Positions 823-43,071 of a stretch of DNA of 64,000 bases are shown piece by piece. Both the position numbers and the translations under genes were made by a program. The notes under the pieces are model-generated. The model was given only the letters and a program-made list of their open reading frames with translations. It did no database searches and had not been told where the DNA came from. Source of the DNA: a virus; the IMG/VR virus record IMGVR_UViG_3300037851_000570, positions 1 to 64,000 of that record, one strand, 5' to 3'. Position 1 is the first letter of the stretch, and each line of letters opens with the position of its first letter.

Positions 823-2823
823 TCAGTTCCCCGGCGCCGAATCGCGCTGCTGGAGGGAGCGCAAGCCTCGCAACACGTCTTCCATGGCGACAAGCATGCG
901 CTCGACCGCCACCTCAGGGACCTCCTTGAGGCCGATGCGTACCGCAACCAGCATCTCGGCCAGCTTCGAGGATGCTGACTCCAACGAAGGCAGCAGGTCG
1001 ACGAACGTCGAGACATTCTCGGCGTTGAGGAAGCCAAGGCCCAAGATCTTGTCGGCTGTCAGCGCGTCATCGAGCACCGCGGCTTCCTTGGCCAGGAAGT
1101 AGTTGTGGATCGGTGGGTCGAGCTCGGCGAGCTCCTGGGCGATCTTGACTCGGATGCCTGCCATCTTCTCCGGCACACTGCCCAGCTCCCTCAGGTTTCC
1201 CACCTGGACGAGCTCGCCTTTCTGAGCTCGGGCCAGAGCCTGCTTGCAGAAGCCGGGCTCCATTCCGAGCGCCACCCCCAGGAACATTGCCTTGTCGTGA
1301 TCGATGAACTTGGTGTTGGCCTCTGCGACCTTGGCGATTGCCGGACCACGGAAGCTAAAGACGCCGGAGCGGTCCCCAACGATGCCGACGCGAGCTGTCT
1401 GCTTGGAGCCGAGCTTCGAGAACATAGCCGGCTCGCTGACGAGCTCCGCCTTGCCTCGCAACGGCATCCAGTTGAAGGTTGTCGGCACTACATACTCGTT
1501 CTCCCCGATCTTGACCGGGACCTTGAGGCCCTCACCGAACGAGAAGGTAACGGGCTGACCGAGGTCGTCCTGCCCCTGGTAACGCAGCCCGGCCGGCGTG
1601 CGGAGCGTGCTCTGAACGTTCATGGGCACGAACGCCTTCGCGGTACCATGGTCGATGTAGTACAGCGTCCCGTACCCCTGCGGCACTCCTTTGGGTAGGT
1701 CGGTGGACTTGCCGGCCGGCATGCCAGCAATGTGCTCCTGCACGCAGTGCTGCGAGCCGTTGTTGAACAACGACAGGGGGAGGGGCTGGAGGTCCATACT
1801 GAGCAGCTGTGGGAACACCCAACCGATCATGCTGTTGCCTGTCGAGTCCTGAACCTTCCAGAGCCCGAAGGAATCGGCGACCTTGATCTCCTCGAGCTCC
1901 ATCGTCTCTTTGATGGCGGCGTCGGGGCTCACCGTGATGGTGCCGTCCGCCTCGAGCTGTTGAATCATGTCGGCGTCGCCAGCGAGGTCCTGCGCGACCG
2001 CCATCGGGACCTCTTCCTGTTGCGGGGAAAAGAACTCGCCGTTGGCCCACTTGACCAGCACCCGGTCACTGCCGAGCTTGGTGAGCTGAACGACCGTCGG
2101 CTTGATCTTCTCGGTCACCACCTGTGCGGTCTTCTGAAGGTCCGTCGCCGTCAGGCCCAGCGCCGAACGGAATGCTGCGATCACGCCGGGGTCGGCGTTG
2201 ACGACCGCGGTCTTGAGAGATTCGTCCTGCATGGCGGTCTTGAGGCGCTCGACATGCTCCGGATTGACCTGGCCGTGCAGCATGGGCAGCAGCGGAAGCT
2301 TCTCGATCTCGGCCGACCCCAGCTTGGTGCCGCCACCTCCAAAGCCTCCGTACCCGGCGCGAAGCGGTGGCTGGAGCTCGTTGATGAGCGACGGGTCGAA
2401 AGGCCGCATGCGGGCCACATCGAACGGCTCGGGGCGGAACAGGGCCTCTCGCAGGCGAGCTTCGGTCAGGTGGTGGTACTTCTTTCCACTGAGGAAAATG
2501 TCGAACGGAGAGAGCATCTGCTCCTTGATGATGATCGGGATGTGGGCGACCCCAAGCCCTGATTCCTTGCGCTCCTCGACCGTCATGGCCGACTTGGGGC
2601 GTACCTCGATGGACCCGAAGGCGTAGCCACGCTCCTCGTCGATCTTGTCCAGCACGACCGAGGGTGTGAACTCGCTGAGGCAGGGGCACTGCTTGTAGGC
2701 AGCCTGCATGATCTCCTGCTGCCAGTTGTCCACGTTGTCGCTCATGCGTGTCATCATGCCGGCCAGCTTTTCTTCGCCGCCGAACGTCATGGGCTTGTCG
2801 AGAAAGAGAGGTTGGGTATCCAT
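823..2823 (-). CDS. hypothetical virion-module protein (666 aa)
   Basis: Long ORF on the same strand, starting 9 nt downstream of the spike gene, with high third-position GC. No NTPase motifs. Contains a Gly run (AGYGGFGGGGTKLG). No family recognised by eye, so the structural/ejection role is inferred from position only. Confidence 0.75.
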   Translation of the reverse strand: MDTQPLFLDKPMTFGGEEKLAGMMTRMSDNVDNWQQEIMQAAYKQCPCLSEFTPSVVLDKIDEERGYAFGSIEVRPKSAMTVEERKESGLGVAHIPIIIKEQMLSPFDIFLSGKKYHHLTEARLREALFRPEPFDVARMRPFDPSLINELQPPLRAGYGGFGGGGTKLGSAEIEKLPLLPMLHGQVNPEHVERLKTAMQDESLKTAVVNADPGVIAAFRSALGLTATDLQKTAQVVTEKIKPTVVQLTKLGSDRVLVKWANGEFFSPQQEEVPMAVAQDLAGDADMIQQLEADGTITVSPDAAIKETMELEEIKVADSFGLWKVQDSTGNSMIGWVFPQLLSMDLQPLPLSLFNNGSQHCVQEHIAGMPAGKSTDLPKGVPQGYGTLYYIDHGTAKAFVPMNVQSTLRTPAGLRYQGQDDLGQPVTFSFGEGLKVPVKIGENEYVVPTTFNWMPLRGKAELVSEPAMFSKLGSKQTARVGIVGDRSGVFSFRGPAIAKVAEANTKFIDHDKAMFLGVALGMEPGFCKQALARAQKGELVQVGNLRELGSVPEKMAGIRVKIAQELAELDPPIHNYFLAKEAAVLDDALTADKILGLGFLNAENVSTFVDLLPSLESASSKLAEMLVAVRIGLKEVPEVAVERMLVAMEDVLRGLRSLQQRDSAPGN

Positions 2824-2832
2824 AGAGGTCTC

Positions 2833-3972
2833 CTACATCGTTTTCACTACTTGGGAAACGCATGTCGCGAGAACAGGCTTCATGACCGCGCCCGGTGCAA
2901 AGACTGCTGGGCTTCCAGGGGCCGCGCAGATGATCGAGGCCGATAGAGCGTCGCACAGACCTTCCAACCAGGTCTTGAGCTCTGTCCCCATCACACCCTG
3001 AGAAGCGGCCCCGGCGCCACCCAGCTTGATCGAGGGGGCGTCGATGACATGACCCGTTGACTTCTCGATGATGCTGGCGCCGGCTTCGACGTTGACGTCT
3101 TCAGTCTCGGACTTGAGCGACATGGCCTTGTTGGAGGTCGCCGAGAGCGTTCCAGCTGTAGCCACGACTTCGATGTTGCCTTCCGTAGACTCCACCATGA
3201 TGTTCTTCTTGGCTGTCAGGTTCCAGTCCTTCTCCAGAGACCAAGAAACTGTGCCCTCATTGTCACAGAGCAGGGAGATCATCAGCTTTCTCGAGTCATC
3301 AGCCCCCTGGTCGTACAGGTTGAGCAACAGTGTAGCCGTATCGTTGGGTCCGTGGGAACCGATCGTCAGCTCGGCGAGGTGAAGCTGGTTGTTGGCCTTC
3401 TCCTTGACCTTCAACGAGAACTTGGTCGGCGCTGCTCCATCGATCGTCTGATCGGTACGGTCCGTAATCCAGGTGAGCTCTCCACCTAGAGTGAAGAGCT
3501 CGTAGTTCTCGCAGAAGTCCTTGATGAAGTTGCGGATTGGAATGAACATCCGCTGGGTCATGGGGTTCGCGCCAAGCTGTACGACCCCGCCGCGGCGCAG
3601 GATGACGAAGTTCTCGTCTCTAGTCCTCATCATGATGTCGCCAGGGTTCAAAGTCTGGCGGCCGTTCCGGTAGGTGGCAGTGTCCTCATCGAACGGCGCC
3701 TGGAACCCCAATACAAACGGCGCGGCGAATCTACCCTGGGTCGGTCGGCAGACCCACACCAGACACCCTGGCTCCGGCTGAACGTAGATGCCTTCCCCGT
3801 TCATAAAGTGGAAGTACGGGCTCATCACCTGGATGTCGAAGTACCGCTTGTTGCCGTACTCCGAGATGACGTCGACCGTCCAGTCGTTCACATTGACGTT
3901 GATGATCCGGCCCGTGTCGATCGACGCCGGCACCCACTCGCCCTCTGCGTGTGATCTCTTCCGTGGGTTCAT
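2833..3972 (-). CDS. central tail spike / baseplate hub protein (gpV / gp5 / VgrG-like)
   Basis: 379-aa ORF. The N-terminal OB-fold-like signature is typical of phage spikes (GRIINVNVNDWTVDVISEYGNKRYFDIQVMSPYFHFMNGEGIYVQPEPGCLVWVCRP...PFVLGF). It is followed by a beta-helix-like run of short strands (NIMVESTEGNIEVVATAGTLSATSNKAMSLKSETEDVNVEAGASIIEKSTGHVIDAPSIKLGG). Its ATG (3972-3970) overlaps the RNAP stop (3974-3972) as ATGA. Confidence 0.55.
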   Translation of the reverse strand: MNPRKRSHAEGEWVPASIDTGRIINVNVNDWTVDVISEYGNKRYFDIQVMSPYFHFMNGEGIYVQPEPGCLVWVCRPTQGRFAAPFVLGFQAPFDEDTATYRNGRQTLNPGDIMMRTRDENFVILRRGGVVQLGANPMTQRMFIPIRNFIKDFCENYELFTLGGELTWITDRTDQTIDGAAPTKFSLKVKEKANNQLHLAELTIGSHGPNDTATLLLNLYDQGADDSRKLMISLLCDNEGTVSWSLEKDWNLTAKKNIMVESTEGNIEVVATAGTLSATSNKAMSLKSETEDVNVEAGASIIEKSTGHVIDAPSIKLGGAGAASQGVMGTELKTWLEGLCDALSASIICAAPGSPAVFAPGAVMKPVLATCVSQVVKTM

Positions 3973-6900
3973 CAGTACATCCAGGGCTCTTCTTCCGTAC
4001 CCTTACCAAATTCCTTGGCATAAGCCATCCCAGGAATAGGGTGCGTGCTGTGGAGAGCAGACCGCCACCCCTCAGCAGCAGCATCTAGTACCGTGGCCTT
4101 GAGGTCACGGCTCTGCATACGGGCCAGCCAGTCGGTCTGCATCTCGAGGGGCAGCATGTTGACACCCTGAAGGACATGCTTAACCTGGACCGGCTTCTTC
4201 TTGCCGTGGACAGCAGTGTTGAACGCATGAACCTCGGATGTTGGAATACGGTCCCCAGGAAGCAGAGCCGGGTGGTCCCCTGCATCCAAGACCTCCGAGA
4301 GATTGGTCATGGCCCGAACGAACGTCTCGATGTTGCGCTTCCGAACCGGCCCCTCATTCTTGTAGACATTCCAGATCTCGTCGGTGAGGAACCGCTGGAC
4401 CGTCGGCATGTTGGTGTACTTCAACAGATCAAGGGGGTTCTTGGTGCCGGTAGAGATCGAGTCTCCCGCCTTCACCGAGCCGCCCTTCTTGACAGTGAGC
4501 TCCCGCCCTGCCGGGACGTAGTGGCGCTGACCAGCCACATAGATACTCCAACCACCAGCTGGGTCCTTCTCGACCTTCTCGATCTTGCCGTCGACTGAAG
4601 CCAGAGTCGCGGCTCCAGGTAGTTTCTTCGGAACATTGAGAAGCTGCTCGAGCCGGCGGAACATGCTGGTCGCGCTCGTGCCCTTGGCTCCGACGACACC
4701 TCCAGTATGAAAAGCGTTCATCGCCAACTGGGTGGCGGGTTCACCGAGTGCCTGCGCGGCTATCACTCCGACGTTCGTTCCCTCCTGGAACAGATTGCCG
4801 TTCTCCGACAGACCGTAGCACTTCGCGCACATACCCTTGCCATGCTGACAACGGAGCGGGCTACGGACCGGGACCTCTTTGACCTTGTTGTTCTTCAGTC
4901 GACTCAGGAGGTCGGGCGTGACCAACGTACCGGCCGGGATGGGCTCTTTCTTGTCCGAGAGCTTGATGTCTGAGGCGGTGTAGCGGTCCAAAACATCTCG
5001 GTCGTCGACCGGCATCGAGACACCCTTCTTGGTCCCGCAGTCCTCCCCTACGATCAGCTGGTTCATTGTAGTCTGGACTAGCTGCTTCGACATCTTGCCG
5101 GGAGCCTGGGTGCCCTGAACCCGACCGATAGTTCCCATCCGAGCCCCATGCATCGACGCCCAGTACGATCCGATGTCGAGACCTTCCGAGTAGGATTTGC
5201 CAATAGGGATCGGGACGGGCTTGCCATAGGAGTCGGCCACAAGCAGAGGTGCTACCGTCATCTGCTTGAACTGGTCCCAACTGCCACGAGCCCCCGACTT
5301 GATCCAGTCGTACATCCGGTTCCCGGAGGTCTCGGCTCGAGCCTTGGCGAGCTGGTCGATCTTCTGGCCGGCGTTGACGTAGAGCTCGACGATCTTCTCG
5401 TTCCTCTTGTTGGGCTCTTTGATGCGCTCTCGAATGTGCACCTCTTCCCTGGCCGCGGCCTGAAGAATTGGATCTCGAGACTGATGGTCAGACTCGAAGT
5501 CCTTGAGGCTGATCGACAACCCAGTCGCGTACTCGTTGCCCAAGTCCTTGAGCTTGTCCGAGACCTTCCCGAAGTCCCCCGGCGTTTTGACCGCCACTTC
5601 GGTCAACAAACCCTTGAGGGCCTTGTCGTTGAGCTGGTAGGTCGGGTCGTACAGCAGTCGATTGTCCCGTAGGTCTGGTGGGAGTGCCCGATAGACCATC
5701 AACCTGCCAACCGTGGTCTTGACCGGTGCCGATAGCTTCTCTAGGTCCTGCTCGATACGGTCCAAGGACACCAGGTCAGTCATATTGATCTGGCCGTCCT
5801 TGACAGCTCGCGCAGCCTCCGCCGGCGATGCATACCGCTTGCCAGTGCGTCGCCCTATCTCCGTCATCTTGAACAGCCCCATGGTGGACTCGTGCTTCGG
5901 CTTGAACATCAGGAAGCCGGTACTCGGGCTGAACAGATTGTTGGACGGCATCATCTTGAAGGCCTCTTTGACGGCCTTGGCACTGACTGGAACGAATGCC
6001 GACATCTTGTCGCCGTCGAAGTCAGCGTTGTACCCGATAGTAGCGAGCGGATGGATCTTGACGGCCTTCCCTTCCATGATACGAGGCTTGAACGCCTGCA
6101 CTCCGAACTTGTGGAGCACGGGGTCCCGCTTCAGCATGATCGGCCGTTCTGCAAGCTCAGCTTCAAGAACATCTCTTACGAGCGGATGGTTCTCCCGAAT
6201 CATGACTTGGGCGTCGAGAGGGTTGGTACCCTGCCGGACCATACGCTGGACGACAAAGGGCTTGTAGAGCTCGAGCGCTGCCTTCCGCGGAATCCCTACC
6301 TCGTCGAGGCTCATCGACGGCTCCGGGATGATGACCCCGCGCATCGACAAGTCCTGGCGCTTACCGATGATCTTGTCTTGGAAGAACCCCTCCTTCGGCT
6401 GCTGTCCTTTTCGTCCAGCGATCATCTCGGCGATGGCGTTACGATGACGGCCTTGGTACATCGTGCCTGTCAGATGCAACGCCTTGACGGCGTCATAGAG
6501 CGCAGAGTGCAGGCCTACCTTCTCCTCTTCCGGCATCGCGGGGTCGATGTCCTTGAGCTTCTTGCTGACGACACCTACGTGGTTGTACATACGGTTGATG
6601 TCGTCGTAGTTGATGTCGCCGTTGGGCAGCACCGTGACTGGACGAAAGACAGGGGGAAGCACCGGCACATGCCGCATCGTGTAGGCCTCGGTCGGCTTCA
6701 GGTCAGTGCGCTCCAGAGCCCGTAGGTACTTGAGCTGTTTGTAGGCCTTGTCGAGTTTGCTGGTTCGGAGTGACGGGATCTTGGACTCCAACTCCTTCTT
6801 CATCCCCTTGGTGTCGAGCTTCTGAAGGGCGTGAACGATCGCTGTAGGCCCGGTCTTCCCGTCGAGCTCCTTCTGGCCGGACATGATGCTGCTGTAGGTA

Positions 6901-9900
6901 TTCCTCGTCAGCCCCAACAGCGCCATGACCGAACCTTCGAACGCCGGATTGGGGATGCGATCAGGCAATGTGATGTGCGCCCACTTGTGGCCCATCTGCC
7001 CGCCCTTTTCACTCCAGACAGTCCCCGTGATCTTAGGGTCGAAGATACCGCCCGGCTCCGGTCGCGCGTCTTTGGCCCGCAGAGTGCGCCCGGCGTCCAC
7101 AATCTCGCCGTTGCTCATCTCGAGGGTCTTCTTGTCGGTGAGCGGCTGGAGGATGAGGTCGTTGCCCTCCTTCTTGACGTCGATCCCCATACCCTTCAAG
7201 TAGCCCTCGAACTTCTTGAACACGAATGGGATCTTGGGGGTCGGGACCGAGTCTCCTGACTGGATCTGAGTCCAGAACTCGTCGTTCATGTCCGCTTTGT
7301 AGGACTGCATCTCCCGGATGTTCTCTCGGGCGTTGTGGGCCAGCATGGCGTACAGACCCATCGCGTCCATAGTCTGCGCGCCGTGCGGACCACCCCCGCG
7401 AGGCTGCATGTTGGAGTCGTAGGCGTCTCGAGACCGAGTCTGCAAACCTTTCTCGGCCATGTGGTGAAGCTTGAGGATGTACTGGGGGCCGGTCAGCACT
7501 TCGCCCAGCGACCGCTTGGTCTGCGGGTCAAACAGCTCCTCGGTGTCGCTGAGCCCGTGCTTCTTGAGCTCCGCCTGCAGGTTACGGGTGTAGTCGGTAT
7601 TCTTTGGGTCGAAGTTGTTGACGATGTATGGCTTACCGGTCTTCTCAGCAATACGGCCGGCGGCAGTCTCAAGGGCCTGGCCCAGATTGATACGGGTTGG
7701 GATGCCGGCTGGGTTGAGGATGACCTCAACGGCCTTCCCGTCTTTGGTCTGCGGCATCTGGTTGTCGGGCAGCACCTGGGTGATGACGCCCTTGTTGCCG
7801 TGGCGCCCCACAATCTTGTCACCCACGTCGGCCGAAGATGTGGCCTTCACATAGACGGTGACGTCCTTACCGTGCTTGACGACCCGGGAGACCACCCCAG
7901 GTCCGTCCTTGTCCCATCGGATCTCTCGGGGGCGTACGGGCTTGATGAGCTTCTTGGAGAAGAGACCGAGCTGCTGTTGCTCAGGAGTGACCTGCTCGGT
8001 CTTAAGCACACCGATCAAAATATCGTCTTTGTTGACGACCTGCCCTGGCTTCACGATGGCGTCGTCGTCTAGCTTGGCGGCCTGCTCCTTGGTGACCTGA
8101 CCGGCGGTGTGGGCAATGAACTTCTGCTTGTTGAGGATGGTGTCGGCCTCGACCCGCACCTTCTCACGGAGCATGTGCTCAGACGTCAGCTTCTGGGCTG
8201 CCGACTCCGAGATCACGATGCCGTCCTCGAAGTTGTAGCCACGATAGGGCATGTAGGCGACCCGCAGGTTCGACCCCAGTGCCAGTGTCCCGCCCTTCGT
8301 GAAGTTGGTGTCGGCCACTACTTGACCGGGGTGCACCAGGTCGCCTGCTTGTACCAGTGGATTGGAGTTGAGCACGCTCTTTGGGTCGTTCAACGGGAAG
8401 TCATCGTAGAGCTGGACCTCGTGGCGGTTGCCCTTTTTGTCCCGGATGATGATTCCGTCTCGACTCACCTTTTCGACTTTGCCGTCGACCCTCGAGACAT
8501 GACTGCTGAACTCCCCGATGGCCTGCTCGAACGTCTTGTTGGTGTCGCTCTTTACTTGCACCAGCGGCTTCTCACGGTTGACCAGTGCCACCGACTGCTC
8601 GAGCTGCCTGGAGGCCACCATCGTTCGATTACCCTGGTCGTTCTGGATGAACGGAATCAGGTTGGACGACAGGTCCAGCATGCCTTTGGGTGACGTCAGG
8701 ATATAGTCGACATCCTTCGACGAGATGGCGGTGATGACGCCTTCCGGGTCCGAGACCTTGACGGTGCGGCCCGTCGGCTTGGGCTTTCCGCCCTCCCAGT
8801 CATACTGGTCCGGGAACGCCAGGTTGGATTTCAGAGCCGTGCCGGGGTCAAGCATCACTCGCTTGCCGGTCTTGGCATTGATGACGGGAACCCGAAGCTC
8901 ATTGCCGACCTTCTTGACGGCTGAGGCCAGCTGCAACGTAACGCCAATACGCTCGCTCTCGGGCGTCTGGATCGGATCGAGGAACCCCATGTGGCTGGGG
9001 TTGATGGACTGCGCCTCCAACGACACCTGATGGGCCGACGTAATGCCACCCTCACCGGGAGCCATCAGAGTAGTGCGTCGGTTGCCTGACAGGAAGCTGA
9101 CCGGATTCATCTGGTCGGGCCGCTCAGCAAGAACCGAGCTGACAAAGAAGTTCTTGATGGGGCGACCGAAGATGTCGGGACTCAGAATGTTGCGCACCCG
9201 GTTGTGTTTGTCGAGCGTGTTCGTGATCTTGCGGTGCACGTCCTTCTGGGTCTTCCACTTTTGCAGCCGCTCGTTGATGAGGTCCTCGGCCGAGAAGAGA
9301 TCCTTGAACTGCAGAGAGTCCCGGTCGTCTGGAACGTCCTCTTGCCGTGCTACTCGTAGGATCTTGGACGACCCAGCCAGCAAGGCCTCGCCAGTTACCT
9401 TGTCGTAGGGCTTGCCCAACGTCAGTTGTGTGGAGTCAGGACGGAGCGCCGTCTTGTCGAGCTCGGTCAGCAGGAACTTCTTGGCGGCGTCCAGATTCTC
9501 GGGGAGCTCGTCCTTGAGCGACTTGTAGAAATCCTTGACGGCTTTCTCCTCGTTGACCTTCTTGTTGGCCGACAAGATCTCCTTGCCCCAGTTCTTCTCG
9601 ATGGTGTCGTCGTCGACTCCTAGCACTTTGAGGATTGGATAGACCGGAATCTTGGTGCCTTGGTCGGAGTGCCGAATGATCATCTTCTTCGACGCTGGGT
9701 CGAAGTTCATCTCGAAGCCGGCCCCCTTGGCGAGGTTCCACTGCGACGAGAGCTCACCGTTACCCTTCACACGAGTGTAGACCCCCGACTTCATACGAAA
9801 CAAGTTGTTGACCTGCCACTCGTTGCCGTTGACGATGTAGCTGTACCGACGGGTGATCTTGGGTAGCTGCGCGACGTTCATAACCTGGCGGTCCAACACC

Positions 9901-10148
9901 TTGCCGGTTTGCTTGTCGCGGAGCTCCAACTCTGCACGAATAGGTACCGACCAGGTCCTGCCGGTCAGCTTGGCCAGTTTCTGTGACCGGATGTCGTCGA
10001 TGTCGACCTTGTCCTCGACCCAAACCTTGTTGGCGACAAGAACGTTCTTCTGCCCTTCGATGGGGAAGGAGTTCTTGATGGTGTTGGCAGTGCGATCCTT
10101 GAGGACTTCGAACGCTTCTTGAGGCGCGTAGTGGGCCATCTCATCCAC
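3972..10148 (-). CDS. fused RNA polymerase beta/beta-prime (RpoB-RpoC-like) single polypeptide, 2058 aa
   Basis: Single uninterrupted ORF. The N-terminal ~995 aa carry RpoB landmarks in order: LPKITRRYSYIVNGNEWQV; NPVSFLSGNRRTTLMAPGEGGI...INPSHMGFLDPIQTPESERIG; AYMPYRGYNFEDGIVISE; GDKIVGRHGNKGVITQVLP (GRHGNKG aa 781-787 = nt 7788-7808); GPQYILKLHHMAEKGLQTRS. The C-terminal ~1060 aa carry RpoC landmarks: KWAHITLPDRIPNPAF; VPVLPPVFRP; GKRQDLSMRGVIIPEP; LKRDPVLHKFGVQAFKP; catalytic IGYNADFDGDKMSAF (NADFDGD aa 1374-1380 = nt 6009-6029); GEDCGT...RCQHGKGMCAKCYG; VGVIAAQALGEPATQLAMNAFHTGG. The ORF-track start is GTG at 10148. The ATG at 10139, with AGGGGTGG 5 nt upstream, is the more likely start. 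Confidence 0.9.
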   Translation of the reverse strand: MDEMAHYAPQEAFEVLKDRTANTIKNSFPIEGQKNVLVANKVWVEDKVDIDDIRSQKLAKLTGRTWSVPIRAELELRDKQTGKVLDRQVMNVAQLPKITRRYSYIVNGNEWQVNNLFRMKSGVYTRVKGNGELSSQWNLAKGAGFEMNFDPASKKMIIRHSDQGTKIPVYPILKVLGVDDDTIEKNWGKEILSANKKVNEEKAVKDFYKSLKDELPENLDAAKKFLLTELDKTALRPDSTQLTLGKPYDKVTGEALLAGSSKILRVARQEDVPDDRDSLQFKDLFSAEDLINERLQKWKTQKDVHRKITNTLDKHNRVRNILSPDIFGRPIKNFFVSSVLAERPDQMNPVSFLSGNRRTTLMAPGEGGITSAHQVSLEAQSINPSHMGFLDPIQTPESERIGVTLQLASAVKKVGNELRVPVINAKTGKRVMLDPGTALKSNLAFPDQYDWEGGKPKPTGRTVKVSDPEGVITAISSKDVDYILTSPKGMLDLSSNLIPFIQNDQGNRTMVASRQLEQSVALVNREKPLVQVKSDTNKTFEQAIGEFSSHVSRVDGKVEKVSRDGIIIRDKKGNRHEVQLYDDFPLNDPKSVLNSNPLVQAGDLVHPGQVVADTNFTKGGTLALGSNLRVAYMPYRGYNFEDGIVISESAAQKLTSEHMLREKVRVEADTILNKQKFIAHTAGQVTKEQAAKLDDDAIVKPGQVVNKDDILIGVLKTEQVTPEQQQLGLFSKKLIKPVRPREIRWDKDGPGVVSRVVKHGKDVTVYVKATSSADVGDKIVGRHGNKGVITQVLPDNQMPQTKDGKAVEVILNPAGIPTRINLGQALETAAGRIAEKTGKPYIVNNFDPKNTDYTRNLQAELKKHGLSDTEELFDPQTKRSLGEVLTGPQYILKLHHMAEKGLQTRSRDAYDSNMQPRGGGPHGAQTMDAMGLYAMLAHNARENIREMQSYKADMNDEFWTQIQSGDSVPTPKIPFVFKKFEGYLKGMGIDVKKEGNDLILQPLTDKKTLEMSNGEIVDAGRTLRAKDARPEPGGIFDPKITGTVWSEKGGQMGHKWAHITLPDRIPNPAFEGSVMALLGLTRNTYSSIMSGQKELDGKTGPTAIVHALQKLDTKGMKKELESKIPSLRTSKLDKAYKQLKYLRALERTDLKPTEAYTMRHVPVLPPVFRPVTVLPNGDINYDDINRMYNHVGVVSKKLKDIDPAMPEEEKVGLHSALYDAVKALHLTGTMYQGRHRNAIAEMIAGRKGQQPKEGFFQDKIIGKRQDLSMRGVIIPEPSMSLDEVGIPRKAALELYKPFVVQRMVRQGTNPLDAQVMIRENHPLVRDVLEAELAERPIMLKRDPVLHKFGVQAFKPRIMEGKAVKIHPLATIGYNADFDGDKMSAFVPVSAKAVKEAFKMMPSNNLFSPSTGFLMFKPKHESTMGLFKMTEIGRRTGKRYASPAEAARAVKDGQINMTDLVSLDRIEQDLEKLSAPVKTTVGRLMVYRALPPDLRDNRLLYDPTYQLNDKALKGLLTEVAVKTPGDFGKVSDKLKDLGNEYATGLSISLKDFESDHQSRDPILQAAAREEVHIRERIKEPNKRNEKIVELYVNAGQKIDQLAKARAETSGNRMYDWIKSGARGSWDQFKQMTVAPLLVADSYGKPVPIPIGKSYSEGLDIGSYWASMHGARMGTIGRVQGTQAPGKMSKQLVQTTMNQLIVGEDCGTKKGVSMPVDDRDVLDRYTASDIKLSDKKEPIPAGTLVTPDLLSRLKNNKVKEVPVRSPLRCQHGKGMCAKCYGLSENGNLFQEGTNVGVIAAQALGEPATQLAMNAFHTGGVVGAKGTSATSMFRRLEQLLNVPKKLPGAATLASVDGKIEKVEKDPAGGWSIYVAGQRHYVPAGRELTVKKGGSVKAGDSISTGTKNPLDLLKYTNMPTVQRFLTDEIWNVYKNEGPVRKRNIETFVRAMTNLSEVLDAGDHPALLPGDRIPTSEVHAFNTAVHGKKKPVQVKHVLQGVNMLPLEMQTDWLARMQSRDLKATVLDAAAEGWRSALHSTHPIPGMAYAKEFGKGTEEEPWMY

Positions 10149-10307
10149 CCCTATGCCATCTTCAGCAGTGTGGGCCGCCTAGGCATGTGGAGGAACGTAC
10201 AGACCTCCTATATCTCACGGAAATTCGCATCATGGAAGACGGTATAAGAGAATTGGTAGGGCCCACGTTCGCATTCTTTCAACCCAGTCACTGTTCGGAG
10301 GAATCTA
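10149..10307. promoter_or_regulatory. divergent intergenic region between the RNAP gene and the plus-strand small-gene island (probable promoters, not mapped)
   Basis: 159 nt without a credible ORF, visibly less GC-rich than its flanks, with genes diverging on both sides. Contains the 8-bp palindrome GCCTAGGC (10177-10184). I could not place a convincing -35/-10 pair. Confidence 0.3.
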
Positions 10308-10469
10308 ATGCCGGGTACGAGCGTAACGGACATCTTCGCGGAGGAATTGGATAGCATGGTCAGCGGAGGCTGCCCAGACAACTACGACAACGACAACGAC
10401 GACTACAACTACGAGGACGAAGACAAGGAACGAGACACTCGCCAACAACAGGACGAAGACGACAATTGA
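10308..10469 (+). CDS. very acidic 53-aa protein (hypothetical)
   Basis: Below the ORF-track size cut-off and found by eye. ATG at 10308 is preceded by GGAGGAAT (10297-10304), with TGA at 10467-10469. Translation: MPGTSVTDIFAEELDSMVSGGCPDNYDNDNDDYNYEDEDKERDTRQQQDEDDN, with 19 D/E against 3 K/R. It is the first ORF of the plus-strand island. Confidence 0.4.
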   Translation: MPGTSVTDIFAEELDSMVSGGCPDNYDNDNDDYNYEDEDKERDTRQQQDEDDN

Positions 10470-10694
10470 TGCTGCTGCGCATCTTCGTCCTCGGTCTAGT
10501 TGCGGGCTTCTCAGGGAGGCTCGCGCATGAGATACGTCAGCGGTCCCGGGCCAAGCCCCTACCGGCCGATGCCGGGGGGTCGCCGCCCAATCCAGACGCC
10601 GACTGCGCCAGCTAGGCGCATCGTCACACCAAGAGTCACACTACCCGGCAGACCGCTGTCGCCGCCGGCCGCGGTCTGCCGGGTAGGAGTCTGC

Positions 10695-11294
10695 ATGAGA
10701 TGCGGAGACGAATTCCTGGGCCCGTTCGCCGTCCGCCTCATGCAAGGGAGGATCGAGTACCCAAAAGAACAACCAAACGAACCAAAGTTCACAGCCACGA
10801 AGTTCGGGGACAACGAGCGACTCAAGTGGCTATGCCCGCCCTGCTCGGCTGAATGCAAGATCATTCAGGACGCATGCTGCTTCCGCCCAAGCTCGGTGCT
10901 GGACGGCCTCTCGACCGGCTGGTGCTGTCTGTGCCACCAACCGGTCCAGCCCTACCCCATGAAGAACTGGGGGAGTGCGCTGAGCATAGAACTCGGCCGC
11001 ATGGCGATGAGCACCAAGTCTGGGGCCGAGCAGTTCTACCCGTTCCGGGACAAGGGTTACATCGGCCAGGTGGATTGGCAGTGCTCCACCTGGGAGTTGG
11101 GGTTGGACCTCAACCGTCTGATCGACCCTGATGATGCTCCGGACCCGGACGACTACCAACCCGAACCCGAAGAGGACGATCTCCCTGAGTACGAAGGGTG
11201 CGAGGGGTGTGGGCACTGCGAGTTTTGCCAATACCTGCTGGACACTGGTGACTTCGAAACCTACTTCGAGGAGCTCCGCAGTGAAACTGGGTAG
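10695..11294 (+). CDS. Cys-rich protein with acidic C-terminal region (hypothetical)
   Basis: The ORF track gives 10500..11294, but the first 65 codons are P/R-rich. The ATG at 10695 has GGTAGGAG 5 nt upstream. Product: MRCGDEFLGPF...WLCPPCSAECKIIQDACCF...WCCLCHQ...EGCEGCGHCEFCQYLL, with multiple CxxC pairs and a DPDDAPDPDDYQPEPEEDDLPEYE stretch. Confidence 0.55.
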   Translation: MRCGDEFLGPFAVRLMQGRIEYPKEQPNEPKFTATKFGDNERLKWLCPPCSAECKIIQDACCFRPSSVLDGLSTGWCCLCHQPVQPYPMKNWGSALSIELGRMAMSTKSGAEQFYPFRDKGYIGQVDWQCSTWELGLDLNRLIDPDDAPDPDDYQPEPEEDDLPEYEGCEGCGHCEFCQYLLDTGDFETYFEELRSETG

Positions 11295-11583: not shown

Positions 11584-12297
11584 TTAGGCGGTAGCTTGGC
11601 CCGCTTGATAGGCACCGAAGCCAACAGCTGCCGGGATGGCGCCGAGGCCTAGCATCTCGCGAATGCCCATACGCGGTGGCGCAGGGGCTGCTTGAGCTGG
11701 GGCAGCGGGCGCCCCAGCTTGCATGGGAGCCTGCGCGGGGGCAGCCGGCGCTGGCCGCTGCACACGCTGGATGTTCTGTGGTGTCATGGCCATCGGGGGA
11801 GGAGCTTGAATCGGTGCCCGAGGAATGGGAGCCGTGGCTTGCGCCGGCACGGCAGCTTGAGGAGTAGGAGTCGGAGCGCCCGGCATTATCTTGGAGGCCG
11901 TCGGTACATCTGCCCGGCCCAGAACCTTCGTTGTCTCTTGAGAAGGACGAGCGGCAGCTTGGGGTACCTGAGCCTTCGGTACGACCTCTCCCGTCTGCAT
12001 GAACCTCTTCATGTCATGGAGTTTAGGATCGACCTTGCCCTCTTGGAGCATCTTCTCCAGGCCCTGTCGCTTGGCCTCGGCTGCAGCCCGCTGCCTCGCT
12101 ACCAACCCCTCAGACTCCGTAATGGTCTTCTGGAGATTGCCAGCCGAGCCACGCAGCGCACCCATCTCGCCTCTTACAGCTTGATGGGGAGTTTTGGTAA
12201 TGGCACGAAGTCCCGACAACACAAAATCCCCCGCGGGGCCACCACGGGCGATCTTCTCCAGCTCGTCGAGAAAGGCTGAGTACATGTGCGGGTTCAT
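11584..12297 (-). CDS. P/A/Q-rich protein immediately downstream of portal (scaffold-like position; function unknown)
   Basis: 237-aa ORF whose start overlaps the portal stop by 4 nt. The N-terminal motif MYSAFLDELEKIARGG is shared with the 288-aa protein upstream of portal. It has a helical charged centre, a long PAxAP-type low-complexity region and a Gly/Ala-rich hydrophobic C-terminus (LGLGAIPAAVGFGAYQAG). Confidence 0.75.
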   Translation of the reverse strand: MNPHMYSAFLDELEKIARGGPAGDFVLSGLRAITKTPHQAVRGEMGALRGSAGNLQKTITESEGLVARQRAAAEAKRQGLEKMLQEGKVDPKLHDMKRFMQTGEVVPKAQVPQAAARPSQETTKVLGRADVPTASKIMPGAPTPTPQAAVPAQATAPIPRAPIQAPPPMAMTPQNIQRVQRPAPAAPAQAPMQAGAPAAPAQAAPAPPRMGIREMLGLGAIPAAVGFGAYQAGQATA

Positions 12298-14342
12298 ACG
12301 ATTGCCGCCTCCGGCCCTCTTCGTGGGGGGCGTTGCTCTGGCAAAGGCATTCCGGATGACGGACGGTCCGCCCCGGTCGTCGATTGAATCATCTGAAGAA
12401 CCAGCGAGTAGAGCTGCGGGTTCTTCTGTTGCATGCTCGTCATCTCGGCCTGCTTCTCATGGTCGGGGAGCTGATTGAGCCACGAGACCACCTGCTGCGC
12501 GACCATCATGAGGTCCACCTGAGCGCCCTGTTGACCTGCACCCAGTGGGGATGACGCATCGGAAAGCGGGTCCTGCGGCGCCTGATCGCCGCCTTGTGGC
12601 GGCTGCATCATCGAGGTGTCCATTGGCGGGACAGCACCCATCTGGTTCATCTGGCCGATCTGAGCGTTCATCATCTGGCCAGTCGCCATCGGGCTCGCCA
12701 TCCCAGGCTGACCCGAGGCCATCATGCCCTGCTCGGTCATCGCCTTCTGCTGCTCGGGCGGCATGGGGGGAACCTGCTGGTTCATCATGATCTTCTGGGC
12801 CCGACCCTGGTACTTGATGCCGACGAGCTGAGCCTCACCCTGGATGGCCGCCTGCGCGAGGGCCTGAGTGCGCTGGTTCTCCAAGACCATCTTCTGCTCG
12901 AGCTGGATCTGGTCCATCTCGTGTTTGTGATCGCGGTCCACGTCCTCGAGCAGCGTGCGATCCGACACCTTGCCGGCTTGATTGAGCTGCAAGTGGAACG
13001 CGCTGCGCTGTAGGTCGTCGGCCATCTTGAACGCTTTGTAGTGGCAGCCCACCACCTCCCAGCCCAAAAACGCGCCGACGTTCGGCATGATGAAGTCGAG
13101 CACCAACTGCTTGCGCTGTGTACGCTGGTCGAGGAAATGGTTCTCGAGAATGCGCATCGATACGTTGGAGCCGCTGTATTGCATGCCGCCGTAGACGAAC
13201 TCCACCGGCACGCCCATGCCCGCGATGATCTGCTCGGACCAAACCCGGTACTCCTGAGACAGCATGAGCGCCCGGCCTTCCGCGCCGAGGGTCTGCTGGC
13301 CGACCGGGATGGGCATGAGGGGGATGTAGTTGTTGTCGAGGCGCCACCGAATGAGCTCCTGCTCGATCTTGTCGCGCCACTGCGTCAGGTTGACGGTCGA
13401 GTAGACATCGGCTGAGCCCGAGGCGCTCTGTGGGAAAAGCAGGCGCAGAGGTACGATGTGCTCAACCGCGATGGCTTCTTGCGCCTTGCGCAGGACCTGA
13501 AGATAGAAAACGTCCTTGAGGACCGGCAGGATCATGGGCATTCCCCAGCCCTTGTCCTTCTGCGCGATCGTCGGGCGCTTCATGTGGTAGATGTTGTCTC
13601 GGCTGAACAGCAGCGCCTTGTTCTGCCGCAGCGCTTCGATGAACACTTGAGGGATGCGCTCGATGATGTACCGCTTGGCCATCCGGATGTCGTTGGCCAT
13701 TGTCGGTGGGATCGAATAGTAGTACCGGCTCTCCCCTGTCACATCGTTATGCTGCACCGTGATGTACTCAGGGTTCCATCGAATCAGCTTGATGTCTCGA
13801 ACCGACCGGACGTAGTGGTCTCGGACTCGGTACTCCTCATAGGAGCCGCAGCGCGGGCACTCACCAACGAACTTGTACTCTCGGAAGAGGTACTTGCACT
13901 CATCGGCCTTCTGGGTATGGCCGCACCGCTTGCAGATCAGGAGCTTGTAGAAGGGGTACGAGATCGAGATGAAGCAGTTGCCGTAGGTGTTGTAGTCTAG
14001 GCCGGCCTCGACCTCGAACTTCTTGAAGTTCAGAATGGCGCCGAAGAGATTCTCCCACTTCTTGCGGAGAGGCTCGTTGATACTGTCGAACACCAGGTCG
14101 GTGACCGAGTACTCGGCCATCTTGTAGTTGACGGCATTCACCAGCGGGTTGGTCAGGAAGTAGTAGCGGCACCACCGCAGCATCGTCTTGAACGACGACG
14201 GCAGATAGGTGTGCGCAATGTCGAAGAAGGGCGAGGGGTAGCGGATAGCCCCCAGAGCCTCGCTGGTCAGCGAACGGCCACTGTTCCTCGAGAACCGGAG
14301 CCCGCCAGCGGGGCCGAAGCTTAGTGCGTCGAGTTGCGGCAT
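12294..14342 (-). CDS. portal-like protein (682 aa) with zinc-ribbon insertion
   Basis: Called from architecture rather than a diagnostic motif. The supporting points are its size, its place in the virion block, and a Gln/Met/Pro-rich C-terminal tail (MNQQVPPMPPEQQKAMTEQGMMASGQPGM...QIGQMNQMGAVPPMD) like T7-type portal tails. It carries a CKRC...CPRC insertion (aa 137-165). Confidence 0.55.
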   Translation of the reverse strand: MPQLDALSFGPAGGLRFSRNSGRSLTSEALGAIRYPSPFFDIAHTYLPSSFKTMLRWCRYYFLTNPLVNAVNYKMAEYSVTDLVFDSINEPLRKKWENLFGAILNFKKFEVEAGLDYNTYGNCFISISYPFYKLLICKRCGHTQKADECKYLFREYKFVGECPRCGSYEEYRVRDHYVRSVRDIKLIRWNPEYITVQHNDVTGESRYYYSIPPTMANDIRMAKRYIIERIPQVFIEALRQNKALLFSRDNIYHMKRPTIAQKDKGWGMPMILPVLKDVFYLQVLRKAQEAIAVEHIVPLRLLFPQSASGSADVYSTVNLTQWRDKIEQELIRWRLDNNYIPLMPIPVGQQTLGAEGRALMLSQEYRVWSEQIIAGMGVPVEFVYGGMQYSGSNVSMRILENHFLDQRTQRKQLVLDFIMPNVGAFLGWEVVGCHYKAFKMADDLQRSAFHLQLNQAGKVSDRTLLEDVDRDHKHEMDQIQLEQKMVLENQRTQALAQAAIQGEAQLVGIKYQGRAQKIMMNQQVPPMPPEQQKAMTEQGMMASGQPGMASPMATGQMMNAQIGQMNQMGAVPPMDTSMMQPPQGGDQAPQDPLSDASSPLGAGQQGAQVDLMMVAQQVVSWLNQLPDHEKQAEMTSMQQKNPQLYSLVLQMIQSTTGADRPSSGMPLPEQRPPRRGPEAAIV

Positions 14343-18114: not shown

Positions 18115-18531
18115 ATGAGTAGGAGCCAGGCTCGAGATCAGTTTCGTTTAGCGCTTCGTGAGCTGAGGAAGAGGTCCCTCTGGCCCGACGTTGGTGCGTT
18201 CGCCGACCAAGTGGGCCTGAGCCTAGGTGGCTACAAGAAGTACGAAGAGGGCCACCGTCTTCCCAGCAACGAAGTGCTGAACCAGATCTTTGTTCGAGCA
18301 AGATTCCAGGAGCAGGAGCGGCTGGAGATCTACAAGCTCTGGAATCTGGCCAAGGGCGAGCAGGCTGGTGTCACGATAGTGGAGCGCCCGAAGATCGAAG
18401 CCGACAAGCTTACTGCTCGTGTCGTAAGTGAAGCCACCTACATTCTGAAGCAGCGTGGCTTCAAGCTCGATGAAAAGACTGAGAGGATCCTGTTCAATCG
18501 GATCCGGATGCTACTGTCTGCAACGGAGTGA
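18115..18531 (+). CDS. XRE/Cro-CI-type helix-turn-helix transcriptional regulator
   Basis: LRELRKRSLWPDVGAFADQVGLSLGGYKKYEEGHRLPSNEVLNQI matches the HTH_3 layout, with helix-turn-helix followed by the conserved E-x-G-x-x-x-P. About 70 extra C-terminal residues. Confidence 0.75.
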   Translation: MSRSQARDQFRLALRELRKRSLWPDVGAFADQVGLSLGGYKKYEEGHRLPSNEVLNQIFVRARFQEQERLEIYKLWNLAKGEQAGVTIVERPKIEADKLTARVVSEATYILKQRGFKLDEKTERILFNRIRMLLSATE

Positions 18532-19929: not shown

Positions 19930-20377
19930 CAGAAAGCCCGACCAGCCCGAGTTCTTCGAGCGTCTGGTCGTCATGACGGCCCAGCACGGCGAGAAGTTCT
20001 TTGGCTGGGTCGCGCACCCAACCGAGGACCCTGAGCAGTACATCGAGTCCCGGATCGCGGAGAAGAAGCCCGTGCTCCTGGAGGACGCTCGCCTGTTGGT
20101 TTCTCAGCTGCAAGTCATGAACGACAGCCGGGGCAACCCGGTGTTGAACAACATGATGCTGCTGATGCCGCTCGACTCCTTCGTCAGCGGCGTCGAGAAC
20201 CTCTGGGTCTACCCCTCGTCCTGGTACTTCCCCAAGAACAACGAGAAGTGCCAAGGCAAGATCAAAGACCTGTTCAGGGCGTGCCTGGAGATGGAACTCG
20301 CCAAGGCTGCCGCCGAGATGAACCTCGTAATTCCAGGGCTTAAGGCTAACCTGCCGCCCCCAGGGAGGATGCAGTAA
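19922..20377 (+). CDS. hypothetical protein (151 aa)
   Basis: The ATG at 19922 has GGAGGAG upstream and overlaps the helicase stop by 8 nt. Its stop overlaps the next start (TAATG). No family recognised. Confidence 0.7.
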   Translation: MSSRKPDQPEFFERLVVMTAQHGEKFFGWVAHPTEDPEQYIESRIAEKKPVLLEDARLLVSQLQVMNDSRGNPVLNNMMLLMPLDSFVSGVENLWVYPSSWYFPKNNEKCQGKIKDLFRACLEMELAKAAAEMNLVIPGLKANLPPPGRMQ

Positions 20378-21126
20378 TGGAGCTCTGGACTCGGGAGTGG
20401 AAGGAGGCCTGCCTCGAAGAGCTACGTGCTGCCTGGTCGGAGTGCCAAGCTTGCCCACTGGCCAACGTGCGCCACAACGTCGTCTTCGGGAGTGGAAATC
20501 CCGAGGCCGACATCCTCTTCGTCGGGGAGGCTCCTGGAGAAGCCGAGGACGAATCGGGGATTCCGTTTCACGGCGACTCCGGGGGCCTGCTCGAGGCGCT
20601 GATGGCAGGTGCAGGCCTGAATCGTGAGGACACCTACATCACCAACCTCATCGCCTGCCGGCCGCCGGGCAACCGGGACCCGCAGAGGGACGAGCGAGAT
20701 CCATGTTGGACACGTCTCAACGAGATCATCTACTTGGTGGACCCGTTGATCGTCGTGCCCATCGGCGCTCAGGCACTCAAAGCTCTAGCGCGCGGCCGGG
20801 ACTGGAGCATCAGGGATTACCAAGGGCATCTCTTCAGCAGTCCATCGTCCAGTTTTCATAGCCCAAGCGACCCCAATGGGCTCGAGGTCCAAGGTCGTCT
20901 GTTCCCCCGGAAGAGGGAGGACAAGCGCGAGGTGTGTCTGACCTACGACATGATCCCGATCGTGCACCCCGCGTTCATTCTTCGCGAGGATGGGTGGGAC
21001 CCCAAGAAGCCCAAGTTCCCGCCCAACGGATGGGCCGTCAAGACCATCCGAACGTTGATCAAGATTCGACAGTACGTCGAGACACTCAAAACCAGGCGCC
21101 TCGATCCACGCAGCGCCGTCCCGTAG
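20377..21126 (+). CDS. udg: uracil-DNA glycosylase, family 4
   Basis: Motif A is GEAPGEAEDESGIPFHGDSGGLL and motif B-like is HPAFILR, in the usual order and spacing for family-4 UDGs. Confidence 0.8.
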   Translation: MELWTREWKEACLEELRAAWSECQACPLANVRHNVVFGSGNPEADILFVGEAPGEAEDESGIPFHGDSGGLLEALMAGAGLNREDTYITNLIACRPPGNRDPQRDERDPCWTRLNEIIYLVDPLIVVPIGAQALKALARGRDWSIRDYQGHLFSSPSSSFHSPSDPNGLEVQGRLFPRKREDKREVCLTYDMIPIVHPAFILREDGWDPKKPKFPPNGWAVKTIRTLIKIRQYVETLKTRRLDPRSAVP

Positions 21127-26393: not shown

Positions 26394-26710
26394 TGGGGTG
26401 GACCAAGCACCCCTATGCTGTGGACCAGTATAGGGGTGCGCGGTCCGAAGCTCTCCGTCAGTGTAAGAAGCTTGCCAAGGCGCTGAGCGAAGAGCTCGAA
26501 GGGCCGACTGACATTCACGGCATGGCCGTGCGTGAGCTGGGGGAAACTCTGCACGCTGAACTGCGACGGTTCATGCGGCTGCGAGAAGCAGTTGGTGGGG
26601 ACCACGACGTAGACATCGGGACCTACGTACATCTTGTCCTCACCTCGTTCTACTCATTCAAATGGAGGAAGCATGCCTGTCACGTTGAACCTGAGCGTGC
26701 CCAACCCTGA
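26393..26710 (+). CDS. possible small ORF in the SSB-polymerase gap (doubtful)
   Basis: GTG start with only moderate third-position GC. It would overlap the polA start by 38 nt, and its first 45 nt form a perfect 10-bp hairpin. The helical middle (ALRQCKKLAKALSEELEG) is the only supporting evidence. Confidence 0.25.
   Translation: MGWTKHPYAVDQYRGARSEALRQCKKLAKALSEELEGPTDIHGMAVRELGETLHAELRRFMRLREAVGGDHDVDIGTYVHLVLTSFYSFKWRKHACHVEPERAQP
26407..26439. repeat. perfect 10-bp inverted repeat (hairpin) just after the SSB stop
   Basis: GCACCCCTAT (26407-26416), a 13-nt spacer, then ATAGGGGTGC (26430-26439). There is no T-run after it. Confidence 0.8.
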
Positions 26711-42768: not shown

Positions 42769-43071
42769 CTATGCCTCTTGCAGAGCTGCGACCTGGGCCT
42801 TCAGCGTCTCCACCTCTTCGTAGAGTCGCTGCATGATTTTTGTCAACACGCTGATGTAGGGCATCGGGGCAACGGTCTTCCGGTCCCAGGTTGCAACCAG
42901 GTCCGGCGCGTCCTCAGCGATGAACCCCGCGAAATCGGTCTTCCAGTTCCCCGCCGGAACGGGGTTGAACTCGGGCTTGTAGTTGTACACCGACGGGGTC
43001 AGAGACAGAAATACCGACTTGGCCTCGTCGTAATCAAGCTCCCGGATGTTCTCCTTGTGGTCTCGGCTCGA
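42769..43071 (-). other. peptidase-S74-like intramolecular chaperone auto-processing domain (C-terminal ~100 aa of the 1518-aa fibre)
   Basis: S-S-R-D-H-K-E-N-I begins at nt 43071. The Ser-to-Lys spacing of five residues matches that of endosialidase/tail-spike chaperone domains. Confidence 0.65.

Follow-up and report, generated by a model that had tools for sequence, protein, structure and literature searches.

We provide evidence that a gene of a large, uncultivated tailed phage encodes both large subunits of a bacterial-type RNA polymerase (RNAP) in a single chain. The gene was found in positions 1 to 64,000 of the IMG/VR virus record IMGVR_UViG_3300037851_000570 (this whole 64-kb stretch is referred to as the window), and joins a compact beta-like module directly to a compact beta'-like module. 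It is almost certainly a real fused gene for the RNAP core of a phage. A prediction made from the sequence of the window alone (the original prediction) had proposed such a fusion, and both halves prove to be RNAP-like in database comparisons and in predicted fold, with template modelling (TM) scores of 0.7-0.85. The best overall explanation of our results, and one that we regard as reasonably likely, is that of a single-chain RNAP core that is probably packaged in the virion.

A single open reading frame (ORF) of 2058 amino acids (aa), without any internal stop codon, extends over positions 3972-10148 when read from its first in-frame GTG; residue numbers follow this GTG numbering unless stated. 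The next-longest ORF overlapping positions 3000-11000 encodes 379 aa and ORFs in other frames inside the RNAP gene reach at most 277 aa, and a continuous frame of 6.2 kb in DNA of 60% GC indicates that the ORF is not a chance feature. The ORF listing and the order of Pfam domains agree with the proposal of one uninterrupted frame carrying beta and then beta' signatures, and the motifs GRHGNKG, NADFDGD and those around the junction all stand at the residues originally given for them (Table 1), with FVFKKFEGYLKGMGIDVKKE at residues 975-994, LILQPLTDKK at 998-1007 and PEPGGIFDP at 1030-1038. The outer coordinates were also right, while the strand had to be corrected to minus and the start moved to the ATG at 10139 (codon 4), which is very probably the true start and would give a product of 2055 aa. 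We prefer this start because the start of each of the 39 full-length homologues coincides with the aligned methionine or is only a few residues away, the closest ones opening with MAHY, and because a purine-rich, Shine-Dalgarno-like GGGGTGG stretch lies upstream of this ATG.

Pfam domains of beta and then beta' were found in the expected, canonical order, namely Rpb2_2 (weak), Rpb2_3 and Rpb2_6 followed by Rpb1_1, Rpb1_2, Rpb1_4 (weak) and Rpb1_5. Rpb2_6 (PF00562) was matched with an E value of 1e-60 over residues 553-912, and Rpb1_2 and Rpb1_5 were matched with E values of 3e-28 and 2e-24, respectively; PF00623 and PF04998 were both matched. When compared with all PDB sequences, residues 62-992 of the beta half aligned to residues 71-1057 of a cyanobacterial beta subunit (E 4e-89), whereas matches to archaeal and eukaryotic second-largest subunits were much weaker (1e-24 to 1e-31). 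The second half aligned to bacterial beta' from approximately residue 170 to the C-terminus (E 3e-121). Identity to the bacterial beta and beta' subunits is about 22-27%. The fold was examined with two overlapping AlphaFold models, covering residues 1-1100 and 960-2058 and built from a 40-sequence alignment, which had predicted local distance difference test scores of 82.5 and 83.2 and a predicted TM score of 0.73; the two were predicted separately, and the mutual arrangement of the halves is outside their scope. Foldseek searches of the PDB placed the beta model on bacterial beta (E 2e-74, TM 0.71-0.75) and the beta' model on bacterial beta' (E of about 1e-62, TM 0.78-0.85, root-mean-square deviation of about 4.6 A), so that the halves superpose on their bacterial counterparts and the kept and deleted parts can be listed. 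There was no close viral structure in a BFVD search, in which the top matches were RPB2 proteins of giant viruses with a TM of about 0.55.

The product is approximately 25% shorter than E. coli beta and beta' taken together, and the suggestion that lineage-specific insertions must be missing is borne out by a residue map in which E. coli beta and beta' were aligned to a hidden Markov model of the family. Beta was matched at E. coli residues 55-231, 426-932 and 1048-1338; approximately 62 residues stand in place of 232-425, a segment that includes SI1, and 933-1047, which corresponds to SI2, is absent. Beta' was matched at E. coli residues 160-949 and 1139-1347, with a weak alignment of 29-67; approximately 40 residues stand in place of 68-159, which includes the Cys4 zinc ribbon (C70, C72, C85 and C88), and 950-1138, the SI3 insertion in the trigger loop, is absent. 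Neither the query nor any of the 39 homologues aligned to it has a cysteine within residues 995-1092. The compaction is therefore accounted for by the absence of SI1, SI2 and SI3 and, from beta', of the N-terminal zinc ribbon and the C-terminal tail beyond region H. The elements kept include the bridge helix, the trigger loop (GEPATQ...FHTGG), the lysines of GRHGNKG, the NADFDGD motif and the second zinc site as well as the lid and rudder region, the flap-tip helix and the clamp helices, whose tip is six residues shorter. Deletion of the zinc ribbon and several domains might be taken as a sign that the protein is a degenerate, catalytically dead RNAP relic that is kept as a structural or DNA-binding protein of the virion. 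However, the NADFDGD and GRHGNKG motifs vary little or not at all in homologues down to 43% identity, and the same holds for the bridge helix, the trigger loop and the second zinc site, a pattern that argues for purifying selection on catalysis. We consider a dead relic to be very unlikely and, judging from these conserved residues, the fused RNAP is very likely to be catalytically active. In the rifampicin pocket, D516 of E. coli beta is kept, and the equivalents of Q513, H526 and S531, which are established rifampicin-resistance positions, are E, G and T; due to these three residues the enzyme is predicted to be rifampicin-insensitive.

At the junction between the two modules, the original prediction had seen no linker. 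Residues 975-1014 align without a single insertion or deletion across 40 sequences with identities of 43-77%, and K993, G995, P1002, D1005 and G1014 are invariant. Both AlphaFold models contain a helix (residues 974-986), a strand (989-994), a tight turn (GND) and a second strand (997-1002). In these models the junction is a structured beta-hairpin, of which strand 1 is the end of beta and strand 2 is the start of beta', with no linker between them; the C-terminal helix and strand of beta lead directly into the segment with weak similarity to residues 29-67, approximately, of E. coli beta'. The C-terminus of beta and the N-terminus of beta' are close together in the connector of bacterial RNAP (PMC10770324, supplement), which makes a beta-to-beta' fusion topologically possible, and the modelled hairpin fits this known nearness.

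A fused reading frame can also arise when adjacent rpoB-like and rpoC-like genes are merged by a sequencing error at their junction, and separate beta and beta' genes do exist in related phage RNAPs (contigs of the mReC study and the relatives L053 and L055-L057). Such an assembly or gene-calling artefact is contradicted by the junction DNA (nucleotides 7128-7226), which is in frame and has neither a stop codon nor a homopolymer run, and by the occurrence of the same in-frame, gap-free junction in 39 independent homologues from different samples. The same junction, with its invariant K993, G995, P1002 and D1005, is present in all of the 150 cluster representatives described below, in IMG/VR contigs and in cultured phages. 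Due to this recurrence an artefact is, on the comparisons made here, effectively refuted for the family, and we assign next to no probability to it for the gene in the window. We also considered an internal restart that would give a separate beta' protein. An AAGGAGG sequence is present at the junction, but the next ATG is approximately 17 codons downstream and there is no start codon in reach; internal re-initiation was therefore rejected.

Table 1. Positions of the fused RNAP gene, its parts and its neighbours in the 64-kb window
Feature	Position	Strand	Details
Fused beta-beta' RNA polymerase gene	3972..10139	-	2055 codons from ATG 10139 plus TGA stop 3972-3974; GTG 10148 opens the 2058-aa ORF
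Beta-like module	7164..10139	-	aa 1-995; aligns to cyanobacterial beta 71-1057
Beta'-like module	3975..7163	-	aa 996-2058; aligns to bacterial beta' from about E. coli 160 to 1347
Beta/beta' junction	7128..7226	-	FVFKKFEGYLKGMGIDVKKE-GND-LILQPLTDKK; from homologue alignment and models
GRHGNKG, beta double-psi beta-barrel active-site lysine motif	7788..7808	-	aa 781-787; equivalent to E. coli beta 1062-1068
NADFDGD, beta' catalytic Mg2+-binding motif	6009..6029	-	aa 1374-1380
GEPATQ, trigger-loop start	4728..4745	-	No SI3 insertion after FHTGG
Second beta' zinc site	4812..5039	-	C1704 (DCGT), C1767, C1774/C1777 (CAKCYG), equivalent to E. coli C814, C888, C895, C898
Divergent intergenic region upstream of RNAP gene	10140..10307	.	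168 nt; 51% GC, lowest among the intergenic regions of the window (otherwise about 60%)
Portal protein	12294..14342	-	682 aa; upstream of RNAP gene, same strand; 32% identity to Arash portal gp204, E 3e-88
Spike-like gene (gpV/gp5/VgrG-like)	2833..3972	-	379 aa; ATG overlaps the RNAP stop codon (TGATG)
Conserved 666-aa gene	823..2823	-	Comes next after the spike-like gene in each syntenic relative examined

Our searches uphold the fusion and show that it is not a one-off. A word-indexed search over 5.8 billion proteins gave 598 matches, and the best 120 of these were all fused, with lengths of 2042-2115 aa (or longer if intein or homing-endonuclease domains were present) and on contigs of up to 215 kb. 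An exhaustive HMMER search was also performed with a 751-residue junction-spanning fragment, which extended from the beta barrel to the NADFDGD motif of beta'; among the best 150 representatives of 50%-identity clusters (E <=1e-152), 150 were single proteins spanning the junction. Relatives in IMG/VR exhibited three architectures: full fusions of about 2020-2160 aa, with identities down to 27%; proteins of 1436-1509 aa that comprise beta together with an N-terminal portion of beta' and end 70-100 residues past the catalytic motif; and separate beta genes of about 1007-1069 aa. Judged by these searches, the gene in the window is one member of a large and conserved family that occurs in many environments and is catalogued but uncharacterised. 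Inteins or homing-endonuclease domains (PF14528, PF05204, PF14890 and PF03161) occur in many of the homologues (P0004, P0005, P0031, P0130, P0149 and others) and enlarge them to as much as 4739 aa; the copy in the window is intein-free.

The relationships within this family were examined with a neighbour-joining tree of 536 beta-core columns, with E. coli as the root and 200 bootstrap replicates, which is crude and represents only the beta half. All fused proteins grouped together in 92% of replicates, and a full-fusion lineage (L045) was placed outside all other fused sequences in 100%. Partial fusions of the type found in Salmonella phage Arash formed one group in 56%. Beside the fused proteins was a distinct clade of phages with separate genes (100%), which includes one contig of the mReC study; this contig of 149,482 bp (L057) was recovered as a distant relative with 26% identity. 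The simplest reading of these groupings would be one ancient fusion of beta to beta' and a subsequent splitting of beta' in the lineage of Arash.

The genes around the RNAP gene identify the element as a tailed phage, in agreement with the origin first proposed for it, since portal, spike-like and tail-fibre proteins are encoded in the window and there is a terminase in syntenic relatives. The tail fibre is represented by a 1518-aa ORF at 42769-47325 on the minus strand that has at its end a Peptidase_S74 intramolecular chaperone, as is typical of tail fibres and spikes. For the 379-aa protein encoded immediately downstream of the RNAP gene, Phage_base_V matches were obtained in three of four orthologues (best E 0.003) and DUF2345 matches in two, with weak PDB matches to VgrG and gp5; its product is probably the central spike. 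A gene order of [463][291][288][portal][237]...RNAP[379][666]...[RNase HII][TerL, GpA_ATPase], in which numbers are protein lengths and TerL is the large terminase subunit, recurs in relatives whose RNAPs are 69%, 50% and 44% identical to that of the window, and the TerL of all three is a GpA_ATPase (PF05876), a terminase of the lambda type. The neighbouring proteins of 666, 463, 291, 288 and 237 aa had no Pfam or PHROG match, and the 666-aa family had no PDB profile match. A megablast search with 25 kb of the window gave no match among 50,697 phage records.

This setting also bears on a cellular origin, in which the window would be a piece of bacterial chromosome with an rpoBC fusion of the Helicobacter/Wolbachia type. 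Fusions of rpoB to rpoC are known in a few bacteria (PMC10770324, supplement), and the contig of one relative with 50% identity was binned in a cyanobacterial metagenome-assembled genome (MAG). However, the portal, spike-like protein and Peptidase_S74 tail fibre of the window, the large terminase of its syntenic relatives and a phage replication module are all at odds with a chromosome. There was no match to a ribosomal-protein family among the scanned ORFs flanking the RNAP gene, and no gene for a tRNA or a tmRNA was detected by ARAGORN in the 64 kb of the window. Whereas the cellular genes occur in an rplL-rpoBC-rpsL context, the neighbours here are the portal, the spike-like protein and proteins without a family match. 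The low identity to bacterial beta and beta', the missing beta' zinc ribbon and the grouping of the fused proteins with phage sequences in the bootstrapped tree also argue against a cellular source, which is so improbable as to be negligible. The contig of this 50%-identical relative is CBDHHL010000046.1 (L007, the same as L010; 162,553 bp), and was binned in a Leptolyngbyaceae cyanobacterium MAG; it is either a mis-binned phage contig or a hint of host range.

Cultured relatives were sought in the same 50,697 phage records. The best matches were Vibrio phages D181, D148 and D69 and Salmonella phage Arash, with RNAP identities of 30-33%, and these four were the only cultured relatives found. 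Their beta-beta' junction is homologous to that of the window and gap-free against it (Arash and D69 were aligned), but their beta' is split approximately 80 residues past the catalytic motif into genes of 1525 and about 606 aa, whereas the ORF of the window runs to the C-terminus of beta'. Thus, Arash gp206 covers beta and beta' up to approximately residue 1460 of the query and a second gene (gp216) supplies the rest. Arash gp206 (L001) and its D69 counterpart (L002) also differ from the window protein in having AADYDGD instead of NADFDGD and in lacking a canonical GRHGNKG. The genomic setting is similar, as the RNAP gene of Arash and D69 lies one small gene downstream of the portal, the portals of Arash and the window are related (Table 1) and the TerL proteins of the window's relatives are 29-35% identical to the Arash TerL. 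In the records of these cultured phages, the fusions are annotated only as 'RNA polymerase subunit beta' or as 'hypothetical', and the Arash paper labels the two proteins 'subunit beta' and 'beta'' with no mention of a fusion (PMC10585845). It had been stated that the characterised phage enzymes go the other way, towards more pieces; this is correct for phiKZ and AR9 but only partly true overall because Arash and Vibrio phages D69, D148 and D181 already share the junction. In Vibrio phages D181 and D148 the region of the RNAP match includes annotated homing endonuclease genes, and in some of the genomes homing endonucleases lie between the two genes of the split enzyme.

Our proposal for how this enzyme would work starts from a minimal beta joined head-to-tail and without a linker to a minimal beta', such that both double-psi beta-barrels (DPBB), the bridge helix, the trigger loop and the clamp are in one chain. 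The covalent junction would make assembly of beta with beta' intramolecular, and could replace or ease the assembly that otherwise depends on an alpha dimer; an engineered E. coli fusion and the alpha-less enzymes of phiKZ and AR9 may serve as precedents for such a tether. We see an even chance that the enzyme works without alpha and omega. The enzyme would be co-expressed with virion proteins, packaged and brought into the cell with the DNA, where it would start phage transcription without host RNAP and probably in a rifampicin-insensitive manner. Recognition of promoters would come from a separate phage factor, most likely a sigma-like protein acting through the clamp helices and the flap tip. 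A sigma-like factor is suggested because the clamp helices and flap-tip helix are kept and because a sigma-70-family protein is present in virions of Arash. Packaging of the enzyme in the virion is slightly favoured over its absence from the particle.

The main competing possibility is that the gene encodes a non-virion RNAP, which would be transcribed early by the host RNAP and serve middle and late genes without being packaged, as for T7 or the non-virion RNAP of phiKZ. Evidence from gene position and from Arash points away from this. The gene is always situated within a block for head and tail morphogenesis, together with the portal, the spike-like gene and TerL; it overlaps the start of the spike-like gene in the window, and in L007 only a 42-codon ORF stands between it and the portal, which lies upstream on the same strand. 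There was no sigma-70-like promoter in the 168-nt region upstream of the RNAP gene. In mass spectrometry of Arash virions, gp206 had the top spectral count (3516), with 1210 for gp216, and the sigma factor gp10 was also detected (PMC10585845). Arash gp10 is a member of the sigma-70 family by our analysis (Sigma70_r3, E 9e-9). We therefore consider a non-virion enzyme unlikely, although it is the foremost of the alternatives to a packaged one.

Several observations nevertheless weigh against a packaged single-chain enzyme. Small opposite-strand genes and an upstream region of its own cut the RNAP gene off from the portal operon in two of the three syntenic relatives as well as in the window, where this region is of lower GC content and the small ORFs are accompanied by the 237-aa gene between portal and RNAP. 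As a result, the timing of RNAP expression is not fixed by synteny. The identity of the spike depends on weak matches. No homologue of sigma, alpha or omega was detected in the scanned ORFs of the window or in 10 kb on each side of the RNAP gene in three relatives, where the window represents 64 kb of a genome that is probably 140-215 kb, and a tblastn search with the Arash sigma factor gp10 gave nothing in the window or the relatives' loci L003-L007. The sole experimental hint at packaging comes from the Arash enzyme, which is approximately 33% identical and has the motif AADYDGD, and the authors of that study concede that abundant enzymes may be carried over with the particles (PMC10585845). 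The sequence itself does not prove packaging. With respect to promoters of the phage itself, the short sequence TTCTCTTATACC is shared by the window and two relatives, but its 3 matches in the window, with 1.6 expected, do not amount to enrichment, and no repeated intergenic motif was found in the window. Divergent from the RNAP gene is a 53-codon ORF at 10308-10469 on the plus strand, which is rich in N, D, Y and E.

Fusions of rpoB to rpoC occur in a few cellular lineages, such as Helicobacter and Wolbachia, and a tether between E. coli beta and beta' was reportedly engineered by Severinov et al. in 1997. These share with the phage protein an in-frame joining of the beta C-terminus to the beta' N-terminus. 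The cellular fusions are, however, full-size, act with two alpha subunits and omega and are encoded in ribosomal-protein operons, whereas the phage enzyme is approximately 25% shorter, has no zinc ribbon, is encoded in a phage morphogenesis block and has only about 25% identity to the bacterial enzymes. Closer in some respects are the 97 phage contigs with beta and beta' that were described in the mReC study (Weinheimer & Aylward 2020; PMC7481178), which are also uncultivated tailed phages with compact bacterial-like subunits (about 1000-1050 and 900-970 aa in one subtype) and an NADxDGD motif. In the table rows compared, beta and beta' of the mReC contigs are different genes, unlike the one ORF of the window, and the TerL and T4-like capsid are PF03237 and PF07068 (PMC7481178), whereas the three syntenic relatives of the window have a TerL of the PF05876 type; the TerL and capsid genes lie outside the window itself. 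The text of that study mentions fusion for crAss-like phages only (PMC7481178).

Among jumbo phages, the reviews describe split enzymes only (PMC7598289, PMC7824862). The enzymes of phiKZ and AR9 resemble ours in belonging to the beta/beta' lineage, in being phage-encoded without a recognisable alpha or omega and in having one set packaged in the virion, but their beta and beta' are each divided over two or three polypeptides and each genome has two paralogous enzymes (PMC7598289, PMC7824862); the enzyme of the window is one chain, and one copy was seen in the 64 kb. The single-chain enzymes gp66 of crAss-like phage, YonO and gp64/gp96 of P23-45 have both barrels in one polypeptide, and gp66 and gp96 are delivered by the virion, but they resemble beta and beta' in the DxDxD region only, whereas the window protein can be matched to Pfam domains, PDB sequences and bacterial folds over nearly its whole length. 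The paper on P23-45 refers to 'derivatives with fused DPBB domains' and to fusion 'in some bacteria', and the fused family of phage enzymes is undescribed there. Our literature search retrieved no account of a fused bacterial-type phage RNAP, but covered few subscription journals, such that a prior report is possible. The novelty originally claimed for the enzyme is thus supported to the extent that no published fused phage RNAP was found, and is weakened by the size of the family and by the unremarked partial fusions in cultured phages.

Phage RNAPs of cellular lineage have so far been enzymes in many pieces (phiKZ, AR9), two-gene metagenomic enzymes (mReC) or highly divergent single chains (crAss gp66, YonO, P23-45). 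The fused family fills a gap between these, as it is one chain that can still be aligned residue by residue to bacterial beta and beta' while being stripped of the lineage-specific insertions and the zinc ribbon. It may be a tractable minimal model for determining what the bacterial core can do without, whether a tether can substitute for the alpha-dimer platform and how an enzyme of 228 kDa could be delivered by a virion, and could provide a compact, orthogonal transcription tool that is probably rifampicin-insensitive. Given the abundance of the family, this biology would apply to a considerable fraction of uncultivated phages, and with Arash a cultured relative is already available for experiments. 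A more far-reaching view is that the fusion is ancestral to a very large clade of tailed phages, and that it produced a minimal core free of alpha and omega. This 228-kDa chain would have its place in the virion close to the portal, travel down the tail along with the DNA, regain its fold with no assembly platform to help and then, in company with a sigma-like factor of the phage, transcribe the incoming genome. We advance this only tentatively, as its chances fall short of even. If it is true, this self-sufficient packaged core would be the smallest known complete RNAP of bacterial lineage and a natural experiment in RNAP assembly.

Other features of the window are described here in brief. 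A replication module of the T7/N4 style had been suggested, which holds only loosely, since the actual set combines a family-A polymerase with a DnaB-type helicase, a primase and a UvsX-like recombinase. These genes are in a plus-strand block from 17.5 to 36 kb that also encodes a superfamily 2 (SF2) helicase, resolvases and a Cas4-like nuclease. The family-A DNA polymerase is apparently split into a 249-aa ORF at 20377-21126 (+), which covers PHROG profile positions 477-586, and a 782-aa ORF at 26634-28982 (+), which covers positions 653-1234; the genes for the DnaB-type helicase and the primase are situated between the two parts. Just upstream of the SF2 helicase is a gene for a 138-aa HTH_3/HTH_31 protein (18115-18531, +), which is kept in the relative L003 and is a candidate regulator of the replication module. 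Almost no database matches were obtained for the five ORFs of 1267-1986 aa that fill the region from 38 to 64 kb. One of these, the 1986-aa ORF at 52937-58897 (-), contains an internal direct repeat of 97 nt, whose copies at 57284-57380 and 58448-58544 are 72% identical.

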